Virus record (IMG/VR): IMGVR_UViG_2534681704_000008
Source of the DNA: a virus
Lineage: Duplodnaviria > Heunggongvirae > Uroviricota > Caudoviricetes
Length of the DNA stretch: 47,550 nt
Reading direction: 5' to 3' (one strand)
In this document: piece by piece, positions 2,085 to 20,292 of the stretch
Numbering within the stretch: the first letter of the stretch is position 1
How the letters are laid out: every line of letters begins with the position of its first letter
The notes under the pieces: generated by a model
Told to the model about the DNA's origin: nothing
The model's database searches: none
The model's input: the letters and a program-made list of their open reading frames with translations, nothing else
Made by a program: the position numbers and the translations under genes

Positions 2085-2998
2085 AAATTTCTCTGGTCGT
2101 TCCTGTCTTCAACGAAGAAGACGCGATACCTATTTTTTATAAAACTGTTCGGGAATTTGAAGGACTTCAGCAACATGAAGTTGAGATAGTCTTCATAAAT
2201 GACGGAAGCAAAGACGCGACAGAATCAATCATAAACACGCTGGCTATTGCCGATCCGCTTATTGTTCCTCTGTCTTTCACGCGCAACTTTGGCAAGGAAT
2301 CAGCACTCTTTGCCGGCCTTGACCATGCAACTGGTGAAGCGGTTATCCCTATTGACGTTGACTTGCAAGATCCCATAGAAGTCATCCCGCACCTGATTGA
2401 GAAGTGGCAGCAGGGTTCGGATATGGTTCTGGCTAAGCGCTCTGACCGCTCAACTGATAGCCGACTGAAGCGTAAGTCAGCTGAGTGGTTTTATAAGCTT
2501 CACAACAAAATAAGCAACCCGAAAATTGAAGAGAACGTAGGCGATTTCCGGCTTATGTCTCGCGAAGTTGTTGAAAACATCAAGCTCATGCCAGAACGTA
2601 ATCTATTCATGAAAGGTATCTTGAGCTGGGTTGGCGGCAGAGCAGACGTTGTTGAATACGCTCGCGCAGAACGCGTTGCGGGAAATACAAAATTCAACGG
2701 GTGGAAACTGTGGAACCTTGCCCTTGAGGGTATAACTAGCTTCTCAACATTCCCTCTGCGCGTATGGACGTACATAGGGCTTATCGTTGCTGGCATAGCG
2801 TTTATCTACGGCGCATGGATGATCATCGATACGCTGGCATTTGGTAATGCTGTGCGCGGATATCCATCTCTACTTGTCTCCATCCTGTTCCTTGGGGGAG
2901 TGCAACTTATTGGGATTGGCGTTCTTGGTGAATATATTGGAAGAATATATATCGAGTCTAAAAAGCGACCTAAATACATTCTAAGGAAGATGAAATGA
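2081..2998 (+). CDS. gtrB: GtrB bactoprenol glucosyltransferase (GT2)
   Basis: 305 aa; N-terminal GT2 signature ([11 protein letters not shown]...DGSKD...DVDLQDP) and C-terminal TM helices. Confidence 0.9.
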
Positions 2999-4557
2999 GT
3001 TCGCGTGTTGGATTAATATCAATCTTTATTGTGTTTTTATTGGTGTTAATAATTCAATTGTTAACACCATTTCACTCTGATGATTTCGGTTTTTATCTGA
3101 AAGGGTACTCATTCGAGACCCTGCATCATGTTTACATGACGTGGAGCGGAAGGCTGTTCTCCGATTTTACTGGAAGCCTTGTAATGTCCATCAAGGACAA
3201 AACAATAATTTCATTTATAAATGCATGTGCTTTTACATCGTTAATTGTCGTTTTAACAAAGCTACCGCTTGAAAACAAAAACAACTGGCCTGTTTTTATT
3301 CTGTTGTTCATGCTTTATTGGATCGACAACCCAAGTTTGAGCCAGACAAGCTTCTGGGTAGTAGGCTCTGCTAACTATCTATGGACTAATCTCTTAGCCT
3401 ATTCATGGTTATATCTTTACTTCAGGTATGGTTCAACTTCAGATGTAAAAATGAAAGCTTTGTTATTGCTAATGGCTTTCATAACAGGCATGACAACAGA
3501 GAATCTAAGCACTTCAATATTCGGTGTTTTGTTCCTCTACAATGCCTTAAATTTCTATATAGAACGAAAAATAAACTGGTTATCTGTTTCTCAAATGCTG
3601 TTGCTGCTTGCAGGTGTTGGGGTATTACTACTTGCTCCAGGTAACTTTGTGAGGTCATCATCTTGTTGTTTTGATTTTTATTCCCAGCCTCTGATTACAA
3701 GGATAACAAATCATTTCCCCGGTAAGTTCATATCAGAAATGATGGAGTACAAGCATGTTATTGTTCTAACTGTCATTTCAATTGGTTATGGGCTATATAA
3801 AAAGAAAGATATGACGTTACCATTACTTTTTGTAATTGGTGCAATAGCTTCAAACGCCATGCTGTTCGCCTCACCAACAAATACAGGTAGAGTGTTAAAC
3901 ACGGGGTTGGTAATGATGTTGGCATCTCTTTCCTTTGCTTTGAGTTCAATATCTGAATTCAAGGCAAGTAAATTTCTAATTTATGTTGCATCTATTTTAT
4001 CTTTGGTTCTTTTTGCTCAGTCGTATGCTAACAATTACCAAAGCATAAAGAGTGTGTTTGCTCAGGATCAGATCAGAACGCAGATGATAAAAGACGGGTA
4101 TGATGCCATTCCATACTTTTATCAAGGAAGCATAGAGAAAGAATCAGATAAGCTTGACATATTTTTTAATTCAAGCGCTATTTCTAAATTTTATGGAGCA
4201 ACAAAGGATGTTGGCTTAATCGATCTTCCTTTTGATTATTCTTTGATGACGCAACAAAAGACAAATATTAATGATAGCTATTTCATTAACTTCAGGAAGC
4301 TTGACGACGTATTCCTTTTTGAAGTATCAAACCCTGATGTTAAATTTGAAAACTATATTTTGTTTTTCAGATTAACAATGGATGATGGTAGCGTTGAGAA
4401 TCATGATTTCATACCTGTTCTACGTAATTATAAAGGACATTTGTATTTGAACTCATGGAAAGTTGATACAAAAGGTAAAGAAATAAAGTTATTCGAGATT
4501 GGATTCTACGATCCGGCACTTAAGAAAAATGTAAGGTCTGTCAGCGTCCCTATGTAA
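2995..4557 (+). CDS. gtrC: GtrC-type serotype-specific O-antigen glucosyltransferase (polytopic membrane protein)
   Basis: 520 aa, many TM segments, low GC, immediately downstream of and overlapping gtrAB. Confidence 0.65.
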
Positions 4558-14526: not shown

Positions 14527-15270
14527 TTAGGTAACGGTAACCGTATGCACGGCCACAAAGTTGCCGTCTTCGGTGTTGATGATGATCTGCGCGCTGCCGG
14601 TGGCGACACGCGTCACGGTAACGGTGTTGCCGGATACCGTGGCCGTTGCTTTTGTCGCATCGGTAGTCGCTACAGTGAAGTCTTTGTTGGTTGCGCCGGT
14701 TGGTGCGATATTCACCGTGAAGGTGCTGGTACCGCCCGCCGTACCGGTGCTGGTTGTCGGAATTACCGTCACGCCAGTCACCGCAACAGCAGTGATTTCG
14801 TTCACTTCGATGGTGCTTGCGTCGCCGACTTTGAACTCGGTAGAGAACGTGACGATGTCATTTGTGCCGCCGTCAGAGCTCAGCGCGGTGATGTTCATGT
14901 AGCCGATGAATTCAACCGGGCCGTAGTCCATGCGCACCCAGATCCCAGGCTGGCGCTTGGACTTCAGCTCGTCAGCAAAATACTTGATGAACTTGCCGAC
15001 ACCGTACTGATCCAGCTTATCCTTCTTGCGCACCTCGCCTTCAAAGCTCAGCGTGAAGTCACTGTTGGTGATGATGGTCTCGACATAGCCGCCGCCGTCA
15101 TCCGCATCAGAGGTTACCGAGTTCGGGTTGAAGTCGAAGCCTTTCGACGTACCAGCAGCCAGCGCCTTCCACTCAGATTCGAGTGGTTTAACATCCGGGC
15201 AGCCATCGGCGACTTCCAGCACGACCGCACCGCCGAACAGGCGCTCGTTCGAGTTCTGGCAATTAGCCAT
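14527..15270 (-). CDS. Major tail protein with C-terminal Ig-like domain (lambda V-like)
   Basis: 247 aa; C-terminal Thr/Val-rich Ig-like repeat (TAVAVTGVTV...TVTVT). Confidence 0.7.
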   Translation of the reverse strand: MANCQNSNERLFGGAVVLEVADGCPDVKPLESEWKALAAGTSKGFDFNPNSVTSDADDGGGYVETIITNSDFTLSFEGEVRKKDKLDQYGVGKFIKYFADELKSKRQPGIWVRMDYGPVEFIGYMNITALSSDGGTNDIVTFSTEFKVGDASTIEVNEITAVAVTGVTVIPTTSTGTAGGTSTFTVNIAPTGATNKDFTVATTDATKATATVSGNTVTVTRVATGSAQIIINTEDGNFVAVHTVTVT

Positions 15271-15288
15271 GTGAAACTCCTCTTTGAC

Positions 15289-15317
15289 GTATAAAAAAGA
15301 AAACCCGCCAGAGCGGG
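15289..15317 (-). terminator. Hairpin plus T-run just upstream of the major tail gene
   Basis: cccgc-caga-gcggg stem followed on the minus strand by ttttcttttttat. Confidence 0.45.
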
Positions 15318-15334
15318 TTGTTGGGTTGGGATGG

Positions 15335-15718
15335 CTATTCGCCGTAAGTGCAGGCGAACTGGAGTCGGAAGACTATTCGCCCTTCTTCTGTGAGCACTGG
15401 CGCGGGAATTGCGCCCATGTTCTGGATGTAGCCGACGCACTCGTCAGCCATGGGGTTTGCCTGGACGTAATCGACGATGCGCTGCACGGCGTTGAGCGCG
15501 TCTTTGCGCTTATCCTTCGCGCCTACGACGTCTACCAGGACGTGATACTCAGAGCCGAGGTTAGTGCGGATATTTGAGCCGCCGTTTGGCCTGAACACCA
15601 TGATCGCCTTCGATAGGTCTTTCGGGTCGTCGTACATCAACTGCTGTACCGTGAAGCCAGTCGTCAGCCCGGCATCGCCAAACATGTTGCGCACCCGTTC
15701 GTGCATCATGGGTGTCAT
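15335..15718 (-). CDS. Tail terminator / tail completion protein
   Basis: 127 aa, position upstream of the major tail gene; overlapping stop/start with neighbour. Confidence 0.5.
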   Translation of the reverse strand: MTPMMHERVRNMFGDAGLTTGFTVQQLMYDDPKDLSKAIMVFRPNGGSNIRTNLGSEYHVLVDVVGAKDKRKDALNAVQRIVDYVQANPMADECVGYIQNMGAIPAPVLTEEGRIVFRLQFACTYGE

Positions 15719-16179
15719 AACGAAAGCTCCTTGCGCATCACAGCATCAACGCTATCGCGCTCGTCATTCGCGCCTTTAGTCAGGAATTGCGGCTCACCAT
15801 GGGGATCCCAGTAGTTGCCCGTTCCAGTCCCGCCGCCGAACTCTTTCGGCTTCTGCGGGCCGAACTCAGACCGGTTACTGGTCACGCCGAAGTGCGCGCG
15901 CGGCTGGCCCTTCAGCTTTCCTGACGCTTCGTGCACGTACGCGGCATAGTTGGCTGAGTAACCGATGCGCCCGGTGATGAGAACCCCGCCAGCGTCGATT
16001 TCGCGGAACTGGCTATTAATCAGAGTTGAGGTGTCGATCGGGGTGTAATATGCCGCCCGGGTACCGATAAGCATCATCGCTGACTGCAACGCGCGGATTA
16101 CCTTGCGCCCCTTAACGTTGTTGATGACATCGTTCAGGTGCTTCTTCGCCTGGCTGATGCCCTTCACTTTGATGCCCAT
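15715..16179 (-). CDS. Head-tail joining protein
   Basis: 154 aa, position and size; resemblance to HK97 gp10-type proteins is by recollection only. Confidence 0.5.
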   Translation of the reverse strand: MGIKVKGISQAKKHLNDVINNVKGRKVIRALQSAMMLIGTRAAYYTPIDTSTLINSQFREIDAGGVLITGRIGYSANYAAYVHEASGKLKGQPRAHFGVTSNRSEFGPQKPKEFGGGTGTGNYWDPHGEPQFLTKGANDERDSVDAVMRKELSL

Positions 16180-16181
16180 GG

Positions 16182-16538
16182 CTATACTCCAGTAATTATC
16201 GCCCAGTCATCTTCCAGACCGTCGAGAGTGTCGTTCCAGCGCGTCACGTGGCGAACCTCATCGGCACCAGCTACGACCGGATCCGGCTCAACGCTCTCAC
16301 CAATCAGGATGTAATCGCCCTCATCGGCCAGCGCATAAGCTGTAAAGAAGGTGTTTTTTACGACAACCTCTTTACCGATTGATCCGAGCTTTGCTGACAG
16401 GCCGCCGATGTAGTCGCACATGATGGTTTCAGGCGGCTCGTATGGGTCGACAGGATCGCCCCACTCGTCATTACCGCCTGCGCCCTTGCGCCATATCGTG
16501 CACGGCTTGTTGTATGACCATGAAGCAGTAGACGACAT
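16182..16538 (-). CDS. Head-tail connector module protein
   Basis: 118 aa from MSSTASW (ATG at 16538 with GGAAGGAGGG RBS); the longer ORF-track start at 16604 is GTG without RBS. Confidence 0.5.
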   Translation of the reverse strand: MSSTASWSYNKPCTIWRKGAGGNDEWGDPVDPYEPPETIMCDYIGGLSAKLGSIGKEVVVKNTFFTAYALADEGDYILIGESVEPDPVVAGADEVRHVTRWNDTLDGLEDDWAIITGV

Positions 16539-16711
16539 CAGCCCTCCTTCCAACGCAGCACCTTCGCGCCAGTCGCCCGGATGCGCGGGCAGTTGATGAA
16601 CCACTCGCCATCCGATTTCACGTAGCCGGTAGTCTCCCGCCCGGTGTCGGTCATCACCCAGACGCGGGTGAACGAATGCGGCAGTCCGTGCTTAACTGAT
16701 TTGTACGTCAT
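16538..16711 (-). CDS. Small hypothetical protein absent from the ORF track
   Basis: 57 aa (MTYKSVKHGLPHSF...); ATGA overlap with the upstream gene stop and TGATG overlap with the downstream start. Confidence 0.45.
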   Translation of the reverse strand: MTYKSVKHGLPHSFTRVWVMTDTGRETTGYVKSDGEWFINCPRIRATGAKVLRWKEG

Positions 16712-17091
16712 CAGCATCCCCCGACCACCATGAACAGGCCGACGCTGTTACCGGCGCTGATAGGCAGTTCACCAGTGCAACCGCTGGTATCAAGCCGGGC
16801 CAGCGAGTCGCGCAGCCAGGTAATGCTGTCGTCGCCATATTCAAACGAGCGGGAAGCGCCAGACGGCGCACCCTGCGATTTGATGCGGCGCGCGCCGGAC
16901 GACGTAGCCATAAGCGAGGCGGCGTACATCAGGATCAGCTTCGCGGTGCAGTCGTCATAACCCGCGCCATCTAGGCACGGGATAATCTTGTTCACCACGC
17001 AGAGGATCGGCGTAAGCAAGGCATCAGGTATGGCGTACCCCAACTCAGCGAGGAAGCCTTTAATTTCTTCTGGCGTAAGCGGGGTTGCCAT
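16711..17091 (-). CDS. Head-tail adaptor / head completion protein
   Basis: 126 aa, position after the capsid genes. Confidence 0.5.
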   Translation of the reverse strand: MATPLTPEEIKGFLAELGYAIPDALLTPILCVVNKIIPCLDGAGYDDCTAKLILMYAASLMATSSGARRIKSQGAPSGASRSFEYGDDSITWLRDSLARLDTSGCTGELPISAGNSVGLFMVVGGC

Positions 17092-17093
17092 GG

Positions 17094-17417
17094 TTATTTC
17101 ACCTTTTTCTTCAGCTCGTCGATTTGTTTATGAGCCTCGTCGAGGTCAGCCTGCAGCTTTGCGTTGTCAGCGGTCAGCGACTCAACTTTGCCATTGGCCT
17201 CGTCGAGGTCAGCCTGCAACTTTTGCACGTCGGCAGGTGTCGCCACTTCCAGGACCTGGTCGCTTACCGGGATCGCTTTTCCTGCCAGCCACAGCGGGAG
17301 AGTCTCGCCTTTGTAGACTTCACCCTTTTTCAGTTCGTGGCTGTCGTGGGTGAGCAGCCAATTTTGTTCTTTACCAGCCATACGGCCTCCGGAAAAAAGA
17401 TGGGGCCTGAGCCCCAT
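17094..17417 (-). CDS. Hypothetical head protein with internal repeat
   Basis: 107 aa; KLQADLDEA occurs twice, encoded by a 22-bp direct repeat; GGAGG RBS. Confidence 0.5.
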   Translation of the reverse strand: MGLRPHLFSGGRMAGKEQNWLLTHDSHELKKGEVYKGETLPLWLAGKAIPVSDQVLEVATPADVQKLQADLDEANGKVESLTADNAKLQADLDEAHKQIDELKKKVK

Positions 17418-17426
17418 GAATTATGC
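17399..17426 (-). terminator. Intrinsic terminator/attenuator after the major capsid gene
   Basis: atggggc-ctga-gccccat hairpin followed on the minus strand by cttttttcc. Confidence 0.55.
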
Positions 17427-18452
17427 TTTGGTCAGCTGGGCGTAACCGGCCTGGCCATTCGCGTCGTGTTTGAACTGCGGCGCCGCAGCAGCCAGCACGG
17501 AGAAGACATAATCGTCTTCCGGATTCTGGCGAGCTTTCGGGCGCATGGTCATCGGCATGCCGTTGAGGATCTGCACAACGTCAGGACGCTTAACCACACC
17601 CAGCAGTTCGTTTTGCGGTACCTTCGAAGCCGGAACCAGCGCCGCAACACCAGGGATTTCCATGATGCGGGACAGGATGGTCTTCGGATAGTTTGCCGCG
17701 TAGTCGTTCACAGACGCGTAGAACCAGTCTTTGTAATTCACGTAGATGGTTACCGGGCCGTAGAAATTCTTGGACTGCAGCAGCCCAATCAGCGCGGAGA
17801 TGGCCCCGACCCACTGAGCGCCGGTTGCGCCGTTCAGGTCAAGACCATGCGTGCCGGTTGCGCGGTTTGGCGCAGTGCGCAGACCGTAAATGGTCGCGCC
17901 CCCGACGTTGATGTTTGGATCGCCGTTAAGCACCATGTCTTCCAGCTTCTCAGCCACTTTACGCTGATGGTTGGAGATGGCGTCGCTGTCCAGAGAGTAG
18001 CCTTCAGTCTGCGCTGCCAGCATCTGGCGCCAGCCAAAAGTCAGTTCACTGTCGATGATAGGCAGCGGCGTGCCTTCGTAATCCATGACAGGCTGATCGC
18101 CCTTCGCCTTGCCGCGGCCATCCAGGCTGATGTTTGCATCACCGGAATCTGACAGAGTCATGAAGTAGTGAACGATCTTACCGAGTGCCATCGGGCGGGA
18201 AACGCTGGCGGCCAGGTCGTTAAACACTGACAGCACGTCGCGCTGAACGGTAATCGCAGAGCGGTCCCATTCCCCCCAGACATCTTTCGGCAGCACGGAG
18301 GCGTTACCGACGAGGTCATCAAACGCAATGAACTGACCGCCAGCGTCGTTGACTGCAAAGCCATGCTGTGCAGCCATATTGCGCTGCATCATGTCCCAGC
18401 GACGGCGCGCGTTGATGATCAGCCCCTGCTGTTGTGGAGTAAACTTTAACAT
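17421..18452 (-). CDS. Major capsid protein
   Basis: 343 aa, AAGGAAA RBS, position between decoration-like and connector genes. Confidence 0.7.
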
Positions 18453-18463
18453 TCTTGTTTTCC

Positions 18464-18898
18464 TTATGCCTTGGCGTACGGAGTGGAGAGGATCACCACG
18501 TCGGCGAAACCTTCCGCCGCCAGAGTGCGCCCTGCTTTTTCGTCGAACGTAGCGACGACCTGGTTGCCTGTTGCGGCCGCTTTGAATACGCCGCCGGTAC
18601 CGATTGTCAGCTCTTGGCCTACCGTATAGGCCGCCGCTGCCAGGCGAACGTTGTATTCCTGCTCACCTTCAACGCGGTACGCCACGCCGGTTTCATTGGC
18701 TGCGTATGCGGTGGTGATTGCCTGGCCGATGAAACGACGGTTTCCGAGGATGAGCCAGCGGCCGGTAGTATCAGCGGCTGCTGCGAGCTTGCCTGATGCA
18801 ACCTTCACTGCCACGCCAGGGTTAAGCGCCGCAGCCACAGGCAGGTTGATGGTTTCCGGCTCACGCTCGACCGGGCCACGATAGATGACGTTAGCCAT
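18464..18898 (-). CDS. Head decoration-like protein
   Basis: 145 aa from MANVIYRGP (AGGAGA RBS); Ala/Gly/Thr-rich; between scaffold/protease and capsid genes. Confidence 0.45.
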
Positions 18899-20292
18899 TA
18901 TTTTTTCTCCTGATCGATGCCAGCGTTGAGGTCGTAGTCTTTCCACTGGTCGTTTTCAGAATTGACCAACTGGAATGATGGATTCAGCGGAGTGCTGGTC
19001 TGGCACTGTGAATACATGTCGTTCAGCGCTTCGCCTGAAAGCGAGTTGATCGCTGCTTCGGTCATGAACGAGAATTTCGCTTTAACAGCGTCACGTTTGG
19101 TTTTCAGGTCGCTCTCAGCGTTCGCCTGCAGTTGGGTTTCCAGCTTGCCCAACTTTTCATTCAGCGGGGTGAGTGCCGCATTAACGGCCGCGGTGATCAC
19201 GTCAGAGTTAATTTGAGCCTGGCCCGGGTCGCCGCCCCCCTCTTTCTTCTGCATCTGCTGGTTGTAGGCATCCCAGACCTGATCGTCGGTCAGCCCCTCG
19301 GTTTTAACGCCTGCGGCATTGAGCGCGGCGATCATCTTCTCTTTCATCGGGTTTGTTTCTCCGTTGGTTTTGACTTCGTACTCAGTTGGTTTGCGCACGA
19401 CTTCTACTGGATCGCCGACAAGCGTTACGACCTTGTCAGAGATGAGGTACTTCTGGTCAAAGAGCTTCGGCTTGGCATTTTCGCCATCCTCTTCGTAAAC
19501 GAAATGGTCAGGCCAGACGCTGACGACATAGCGCCACTTTTTGTCGTCCTGCTTGATGGACATGCGCAGCGCCTGGTAGATGTCGTCGAAGGACATCTCT
19601 GAGGCGTTGCTGATGAAGAACTTCACTTTGTTCCACCAGCCGTCTTTCATGCTGTTGGCGGCATCGATGAGGCTCGTCGATTCAACATCAGCCTCCTGCC
19701 CGTCAGCGTTGACGAACATGCCGACGCCTTCATCAGGAGTACCGGCGCCAGGCTCGTCGAGCAGGATCGCGATGTGGTCGAACTGCATGTTGTGAGCGAC
19801 CCAGGAGTATTTCTTCTGCTTCGACTCACCTGCCTTTTGCTCTTTGTTCAGCAGCAGACCTGTAGAAACATGAATCGGGTCGGCGTTGTTTCCGGAAATC
19901 ATGTCGTCCAGGCGCTGAATAAGGCGCTTACCGTCAGGCTTGGTGTCAGCCACAGCCTTATTGACGTAAACGTCCATCACGACCTTGTCGTTGGCCTTGC
20001 TGACGTTCTGAGCCCACGCTCCGGCGTAGTAATCATTGACAGCCTGCGGGTCGTTGGCGCTGACGTATTTGCCGTTCACCATCGGGTGGCCGATCGGCAT
20101 TAACTTGCGCTCCATCGTCTGGTAGCTGTTGTTAATCTCCTCCGCCGGGTACAGGCCGCCATTCATCACGATGTCATCGACGATCGGGACCGCACCACGA
20201 ATGACGTAGTGTTCCTGGCCGTTGATTGTGGTCGTTGAGATGTTGGAAGCGTTGATGGCGAGGGATTTAACGTGGATGCTGGATAGCTTCAC
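18898..20292 (-). CDS. Prohead protease / scaffolding-like protein
   Basis: 464 aa, GTG start with GAGGA RBS; acidic C-terminal coiled-coil region typical of scaffolds. Confidence 0.45.

Follow-up and report, generated by a model that had tools for sequence, protein, structure and literature searches.

A conserved 57-codon gene between the adaptor-position and stopper genes of a tailed phage, with a product predicted to be a truncated DUF551-like barrel

In the Salmonella phage ES18, a small gene, that of gp12 (YP_224150.1), occupies the slot between the genes for gp11 (DUF7370) and gp13 (PHROG 797), and its start overlaps the preceding gene by one nucleotide. Members of the ES18 gp12 family are 55-61 aa long. 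Annotation of the family dates back to the ES18 record, PHROGs and RefSeq both list it, and what we report here is an annotation repair, not a discovery. The stoppers of SPP1 (gp16), GTA, Mycofy1 and Bxb1 have a fold like that of the protein encoded downstream of the small gene, a comparison that concerns this downstream gene only, and to our knowledge none of these solved stopper systems has a small gene between adaptor and stopper. The small protein itself shares the motif W-x-x-V...LP...V-L/W-V...G...G-x-W with DUF551, a domain that is found in CPS-53 YfdS and in Ea22 V2 variants. The usual place of DUF551 genes is in early or accessory regions. DUF551 proteins usually carry a C-terminal HWMPLPxPP tail, whereas the small protein has no such tail, is shorter, stands alone and is encoded in a structural late operon. 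In the literature DUF551 appears only as a portable domain that occurs in fusion with unrelated proteins (PMC10834534). Mass spectrometry is the basis on which the mEp021 homologues of the two genes that flank the small gene are listed as virion structural proteins, the upstream homologue being mEp021_57 (PMC11893012). That virion proteome could not show the small protein, as its gene is unannotated in the record and only 10% gel bands were analysed (PMC11893012). The Midgardsormr38 paper contains no proteomics on these ORFs, a 2026 HepS paper that mentions ES18 deals with the J tail tip protein and not with the connector, and our literature search returned no mention of DUF7370.

We analysed a stretch of 47,550 nucleotides of Caudoviricetes DNA (IMG/VR record IMGVR_UViG_2534681704_000008), referred to as the window, in which a sequence-only reading had proposed a 57-aa gene at 16538-16711. 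The ORF lies exactly there, with its ATG at 16711-16709 and its TGA at 16540-16538, on the minus strand, which carries every gene of this part of the window. The features of the locus, from the upstream gene to the stopper gene, are:

16711-17091 (16714-17091 without the stop), minus strand: upstream gene, 126 aa, Pfam DUF7370 / PHROG 786, in the head-tail adaptor position
16717-16722, minus strand: G-rich Shine-Dalgarno-like run GGGGGA, putative ribosome-binding site, 5 nt 5' of ATG 16711
16715-16717, minus strand: alternative in-frame ATG, 6 nt upstream of ATG 16711, giving 59 aa (MLMTYK...), not conserved
16709-16713, minus strand: upstream stop/start overlap TGATG, with one base common to the TGA of the DUF7370 gene (16713-16711) and the ATG of the small gene
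16538-16711, minus strand: small gene, 57 codons and TGA, product MTYKSVKHGLPHSFTRVWVMTDTGRETTGYVKSDGEWFINCPRIRATGAKVLRWKEG, of the ES18 gp12 / PHROG 1261 family, predicted minimal DUF551-like beta-barrel
16539-16604, minus strand: rejected GTG-initiated N-terminal extension of the stopper gene, of 22 codons and in another frame than the small gene
16543-16549, minus strand: AAGGAGG, Shine-Dalgarno sequence of the stopper gene, inside the last small-gene codons (W-K-E-G)
16536-16540, minus strand: downstream stop/start overlap TGATG, small-gene stop and stopper-gene start, present in 62 of 78 related contexts
16182-16538, minus strand: stopper gene, 118 aa from its true ATG, PHROG 797, head-to-tail stopper (head-closure) fold

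At the upstream junction the window reads C-TGATG-A. The sequence-only reading had described an ATGA overlap here, and this was its only error: the junction is a 1-nt TGATG. An overlap of one nucleotide (TGATG or TAATG) is found in 68 of the 78 unique related contexts, and ATGA-type junctions occur in nine of them. Relatives carry GGGGGC or GGAGGC at the position of GGGGGA. The same reading was accurate on the downstream junction, both for the TGATG at 16540-16536 and for a strong ribosome-binding site before the true ATG of the stopper gene, which is the AAGGAGG at 16549-16543, 4 nt before ATG 16538. At this site TGGAAGGAGGG is retained in about 60 of 78 contexts, and the last ~15 nt of the small gene read AAGGAGGGCTGATG. 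With TGATG at both of its junctions, the small gene has the stop/start overlaps of translationally coupled overlapping genes, and we infer from the geometry of the junctions that its translation may be coupled to that of both neighbours.

In DNA of this composition the openness of the 57-codon frame proves nothing by itself, as the mechanical ORF list has numerous spurious ORFs of about its length nearby, and the case for a gene rests on relatives. The product matches PHROG 1261 over its full length (all 57 residues aligned with all 57 profile positions; E 5.4e-34, 116.7 bits) and belongs to this family. Homologues were found by tblastn in 41 phage records, at identities down to 41-53%, from phages of Enterobacter, Klebsiella, Cronobacter, Salmonella (ES18, SPN3UB, Oslo), Erwinia, Hafnia and E. 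coli (mEp). In the protein database, a single-sequence search returned 156 clusters and a profile search 340, nearly all of 56-57 aa. The gene is annotated as a separate CDS in ES18 (gp12), Klebsiella 2b LV-2017 (ARB15622), Erwinia vB_EhrS_49, Midgardsormr38, Hafnia Pocitis76 and Salmonella S107, and RefSeq PGAP annotates it as WP_014883997.1 in a prophage of E. coli EF7-18-51 with tiling identical to that of the window, as is the tiling in Klebsiella 2b LV-2017. Wherever position was examined (ES18, Klebsiella 2b LV-2017, Erwinia 49, Midgardsormr38, Hafnia Pocitis76, Salmonella S107, mEp021 and the E. coli prophage), the homologue always sits between the DUF7370 and PHROG 797 genes, so that the window gene shares the position of PHROG 1261 members as well as their sequence. 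All 80 of the related IMG/VR loci whose upstream DNA reaches far enough preserve the frame, and among 60 distinct DNA variants the variable columns number 27, 24 and 52 at codon positions 1, 2 and 3. The small ORF is beyond chance because it is conserved, as seen in the PHROG match, the 41 phage records and the bias of substitutions towards third positions. We conclude that the interval 16538-16711 on the minus strand is a genuine coding gene within the late operon of the phage, translated from ATG 16711.

Two in-frame ATGs could begin this gene. Translation from ATG 16717, the first ATG after the in-frame stop, would give a product of 59 aa and an overlap of 7 nt with the upstream gene. GGTGGT lies 6 nt upstream of this ATG, and ES18 gp12 is also 59 aa long, though its additional residues are C-terminal. 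However, ATG 16717 is found in just five of the 78 unique junction contexts, most relatives having GGCTGC where the window has GGATGC, and the PHROG 1261 profile and nearly all of the aligned homologues begin at the methionine of ATG 16711 (MTYK/MAW). We consider the longer form very unlikely and retain ATG 16711 as the start; both ATGs could be usable in this particular phage.

As the sequence-only reading had pointed out, the ORF track lacks the small gene and offers a GTG-started form of the stopper gene that would overlap the small ORF. In that model the stopper gene begins at GTG 16604, overlaps the small ORF by 66 nt and encodes 140 aa (N-terminus MVHQLPAHPGDW...), and the 57-codon frame is a chance ORF. 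In the mechanical ORF list the small frame is counted as 59 aa from ATG 16717, just below the default cut-off of 60 aa, which may be the cause of the miss. The 140-aa frame is indeed open in the window, and N-terminal extensions occur in about ten database entries. However, the GTG is accounted for by conserved codons of the small gene, being the G/TG of Glu35-Trp36 (GAG TGG), and no Shine-Dalgarno sequence precedes it. In the 64-nt overlap zone, synonymous and non-synonymous differences from the consensus stand at 87:57 in the small-gene frame, while the extension frame has 10:144 and the third frame 35:130; at 10:144, the extension frame shows no sign of purifying selection. That frame is also closed, in 16 of 60 variants, by a stop 3' of the GTG position. 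The PHROG 797 profile (positions 1-117) aligns with the ATG 16538 form from its first residue, some 110 of the best 120 database clusters have lengths of 115-122 aa and align from this ATG, and the equivalent ATG is the start that PGAP places in all three E. coli genomes inspected and that the ES18 annotation uses.

The sequence-only reading had named stopper homologues that include the N-terminal extension as evidence that would count against its gene model. Eleven longer or otherwise atypical entries were inspected, and the longer ones proved to be off-frame read-throughs or deletion fusions. Seven of the eleven are read-throughs of the small gene's alternative frame, rich in R, G and H (e.g. 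MGDDRHRAGDYRLREVGRRVVHQLPAHPGDWREG...), with one or two members each and unequal lengths. Entry P0178 (173 aa, at least 24 contigs; loci L093 and L094, 4001-4522) opens with the small protein's own sequence, fused in frame to the stopper. Its source is the loss of 2 nt close to the small gene's 3' end (CTGCGTTGG to CTGC--TGG), a deletion that spares the stopper ribosome-binding site and ATG and removes the last five residues, RWKEG, which are part of the barrel's last strand; the structural modules of these contigs are otherwise intact-looking. In P0137 (181 aa, one short contig), the DUF7370 N-terminus appears from the sequence to be joined to the stopper, with the small gene deleted. From the stop closures, the 10:144 ratio, the off-frame longer entries and the homologues that align from the ATG, we conclude that the 140-aa GTG form is a longest-ORF artefact, and the ORF-track model is effectively refuted.

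The assignment of the locus to the connector module was correct. The stopper gene is followed by a Neck1/tail-completion gene (PHROG 5), a tail terminator gene (Pfam PF23842) and a gene for an Ig-domain major tail protein, and DUF7370 and stopper homologues are the virion proteins of mEp021 mentioned above. The stopper protein is assigned to its class by its beta-barrel fold, in a model of moderate confidence (pLDDT 76), and by the place of its gene before the tail-completion and terminator genes. Sequence searches of the PDB with the small, upstream and downstream proteins gave no match, and thus no solved chain matches the stopper in sequence. A stopper-fold gene of ~115-133 aa is labelled "tail length tape measure protein" in the RefSeq records of CobraSix (gp14; L002 2741-3142) and Midgardsormr38 (ORF11; L085 2646-2993), which, given its size and fold, looks like a misannotation.

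The small gene is an integral part of the late operon. In a consensus scan, 15000-19000 held nothing that resembled a promoter. Of the terminator-like hairpins on the coding strand, the two closest to the small gene are one at 17417-17400, directly behind the coat gene, and one at 15319-15302. The GC content of the small gene is 0.61 and its GC3 0.81, against 0.55-0.60 and 0.61-0.75 in its neighbours. We considered and rejected the possibility that it is a moron, that is, an autonomous accessory gene: by the consensus scan it has no promoter or terminator of its own, and its composition is like that of the neighbouring genes. The first of these hairpins, ATGGGGCTCAGGCCCCAT followed by a T-run (17400-17417, minus strand), overlaps the first codons of the listed 107-aa ORF at 17094-17417, whose true start is probably further downstream (MAGKEQNW...). 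In ES18 a putative terminator lies slightly further along than the hairpin of the window, after gene 10.

An AlphaFold2 model of the small protein, built with 72 homologues, reached a pLDDT of 95.1 and a pTM of 0.76. The modelled strands comprise residues 17-21, 26-31, 37-39 and 51-55, with a short helix at 42-45. Among the 14 top matches in BFVD, 12 are DUF551 proteins (query TM-score 0.68-0.81, probability 1.0), a likeness of fold between structures that are predicted on both sides. The family profile finds the DUF551 proteins P0279, P0283 and P0286 at E 1.7e-4 to 7e-4; these match Pfam DUF551 at E 6e-14 to 6e-10 and, in the reverse search among 720 ORFs, match the ORF of the window at E 1e-6 to 8e-5, and the similarity is therefore reciprocal. 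A profile search of 1.84 billion representatives returned just ~15 clusters of the 53-62 aa family, together with weaker matches to DUF551 proteins of 104-105 aa. Against Pfam DUF551 (PF04448) itself, ES18 gp12 scores 22.8 bits over profile positions 1-45 of 68, where the gathering threshold is 22 bits, the Klebsiella 2b homologue scores 16.5 bits, and the window protein has no match at E <= 1. The family ends in ...RWKEG, right after the last strand, and the C-terminal W-MPLP-x-PP segment of a complete DUF551 domain is not present. We classify the small protein as a truncated stand-alone DUF551-like barrel and not as a formal Pfam member, because it has the fold and the reciprocal matches but falls below the Pfam threshold and carries no HWMPLPxPP tail.

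The predicted product would be a single-domain beta-barrel of 57 residues, mostly basic, and a truncated relative of the phage DUF551 domain. Net charge in the family ranges from 0 to +6 and is mostly basic, and all members contain a single Cys and three to four Trp. Ten columns are invariant among 21 aligned members, including Trp18, Trp37, Cys41 and Trp54. ES18 gp12 and the window protein share 49% identity; gp12 is two residues longer at its C-terminus, and its gene overlaps that of gp13 by 8 nt, not by 1. NCBIfam and PADLOC gave no match for the small protein, no solved neck structure has a similar fold, and no second DUF551 gene was found elsewhere in the window. A search of the PDB with the family profile gave no more than a likeness to the T4 fibritin foldon hairpin (RETTGYVKSDGEWFIN, at 16595-16640, residues 25-40, against RDGQAYVRKDGEWVLL); it covers 16 residues at E 0.03-0.1, which is non-significant, and is probably due to chance. 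Many family entries bear the name "50S ribosomal protein L13" (P0019, P0042, P0044, P0082, P0084, P0253 and others; MK714353, MK448231). This identity was rejected, since no L13 family in Pfam or NCBIfam matches at E <= 1, and the name is a propagated misannotation.

The slot between the two flanking genes is variable. Phage records with a PHROG 797 homologue number 241 and those with a DUF7370 homologue 308, against 41 with the small gene, and in ~200 phages with the same flanking genes no small-gene homologue is detectable. In all three such phages inspected (Mannheimia vB_MhS_587AP2, Shigella Sf11 and Salmonella Akira) the slot is empty and the flanking genes abut or overlap. Klebsiella VLCpiS13a has an unrelated hydrophobic ORF of 44 aa in the slot. 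The slots of these four phages are at L089 1501-2222, L091 1501-2231, L092 1501-2231 and L090 1890-2024. The upstream, small and downstream products are 88, 95 and 98% identical to those of the window in ENT1, 87, 71 and 53% in Klebsiella 2b, and 36, 93 and 61% in CobraSix, and these three adjacent connector-module genes are strongly mosaic.

About nine relatives carry an insert of ~150 bp behind codon 56 of the small gene, which supplies a further ORF of 51 aa, MKRGGLLKNGRLYRVGEVVMDSYIPPNPIKRSEQLKGQCGNVTVVLRWKEG (loci L070, L066, L063, L039, L038, L069, L023, L055 and L082, about 2849-3001 in locus coordinates). The last 7-8 residues of this ORF repeat the C-terminus of the small protein in most such relatives, and we therefore infer that the insertion made a second copy of the small gene's 3' end, along with the stopper gene's AAGGAGG/TGATG signals. 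At the place of the insert CobraSix has a different ORF, of 62 aa (L002 2671-2860).

The small gene is probably not a core part of the connector. The ~200 phages without a homologue, the empty slots, the mosaicism and the persistence of the 2-nt deletion lead us to regard it as an optional accessory that would be co-expressed with the connector proteins. It would thus be dispensable as a building block and yet be produced together with the adaptor and stopper proteins. Taken as a whole, the explanation in which we place high confidence is that of a real gene, with starts at ATG 16711 and ATG 16538 for the small and stopper genes, whose product is DUF551-like and which is an optional accessory of the connector module.

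What the product does is a matter of more divided probabilities. It would most likely be a small binding module, acting at the neck, during head completion or on a target outside the virion. An association with the connector or neck is plausible, although we would put it at somewhat less than an even chance. In its stronger form, the small protein would be a true neck component of the virion or of its assembly, such as a decoration or clamp of the adaptor-stopper junction or a chaperone of stopper attachment, that is needed in the ES18-like lineage. The gene keeps its place between the adaptor-position and stopper genes in lineages with as little as 41-53% identity, the stop/start overlaps on both sides suggest co-production, the composition is like that of structural genes, the gene has no promoter of its own, and both flanking proteins are virion proteins in mEp021. 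Against this stand the ~200 phages that have adaptor-position and stopper genes but no small-gene homologue, with the flanking genes abutting in the three inspected, the mosaicism of the gene relative to its neighbours in CobraSix (36, 93 and 61%), the lack of a similar fold among solved neck structures, and the wide occurrence of the truncating deletion. We consider a needed neck component to be a reasonable candidate that has roughly one chance in three.

The alternative to which we give the most weight, still a little short of even, is that the gene is a non-structural accessory in a permissive slot of the late operon, encoding a binding domain directed at the host, at defence or at regulation, like other DUF551 proteins. 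DUF551 is portable, occurring in phage proteins with varied N-terminal regions and fused to unrelated proteins (PMC10834534); the slot itself is variable, being empty, holding the VLCpiS13a 44-aa ORF, or gaining an extra 51- or 62-aa ORF in ~10 relatives; and the small gene is confined to a narrow, mostly temperate enterobacterial group. However, the gene has neither the autonomous expression signals nor the deviant composition that are typical of morons, it has no match in a defence-system library (one that does not cover anti-defence genes), and the DUF551 family has so far no assigned function by which this reading could be sharpened. A more speculative proposal, which we consider improbable but worth recording, is that the stand-alone DUF551 barrel works in association with the neck, perhaps as a basic clamp on the DNA end or where adaptor and stopper meet, or else that the adaptor/stopper slot is a recurrent landing site for small accessory genes, namely the small gene, the 51-aa ORF with its duplicated tail and the VLCpiS13a ORF.

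With the optional accessory gene as our preferred reading, the gene map of the window is corrected by the addition of the 57-aa gene and the shortening of the stopper gene to its true 118 aa. The small ORF is likewise intact but unannotated in mEp021 (MH706966; L086 2468-2653), and the RefSeq (PGAP) genomes of E. coli 1008S19 (L096 691-861) and SC480 (L097 684-857), and all three records show an "intergenic" gap of 170-180 nt in its place. The gene family has been repeatedly omitted or mislabelled, which makes a note to annotators somewhat useful. An optional DUF551-like barrel in a connector operon poses a small question and is not a surprise. If the neck-associated reading is true, it would provide the first structural or biochemical context for the large, so far function-less DUF551 family.
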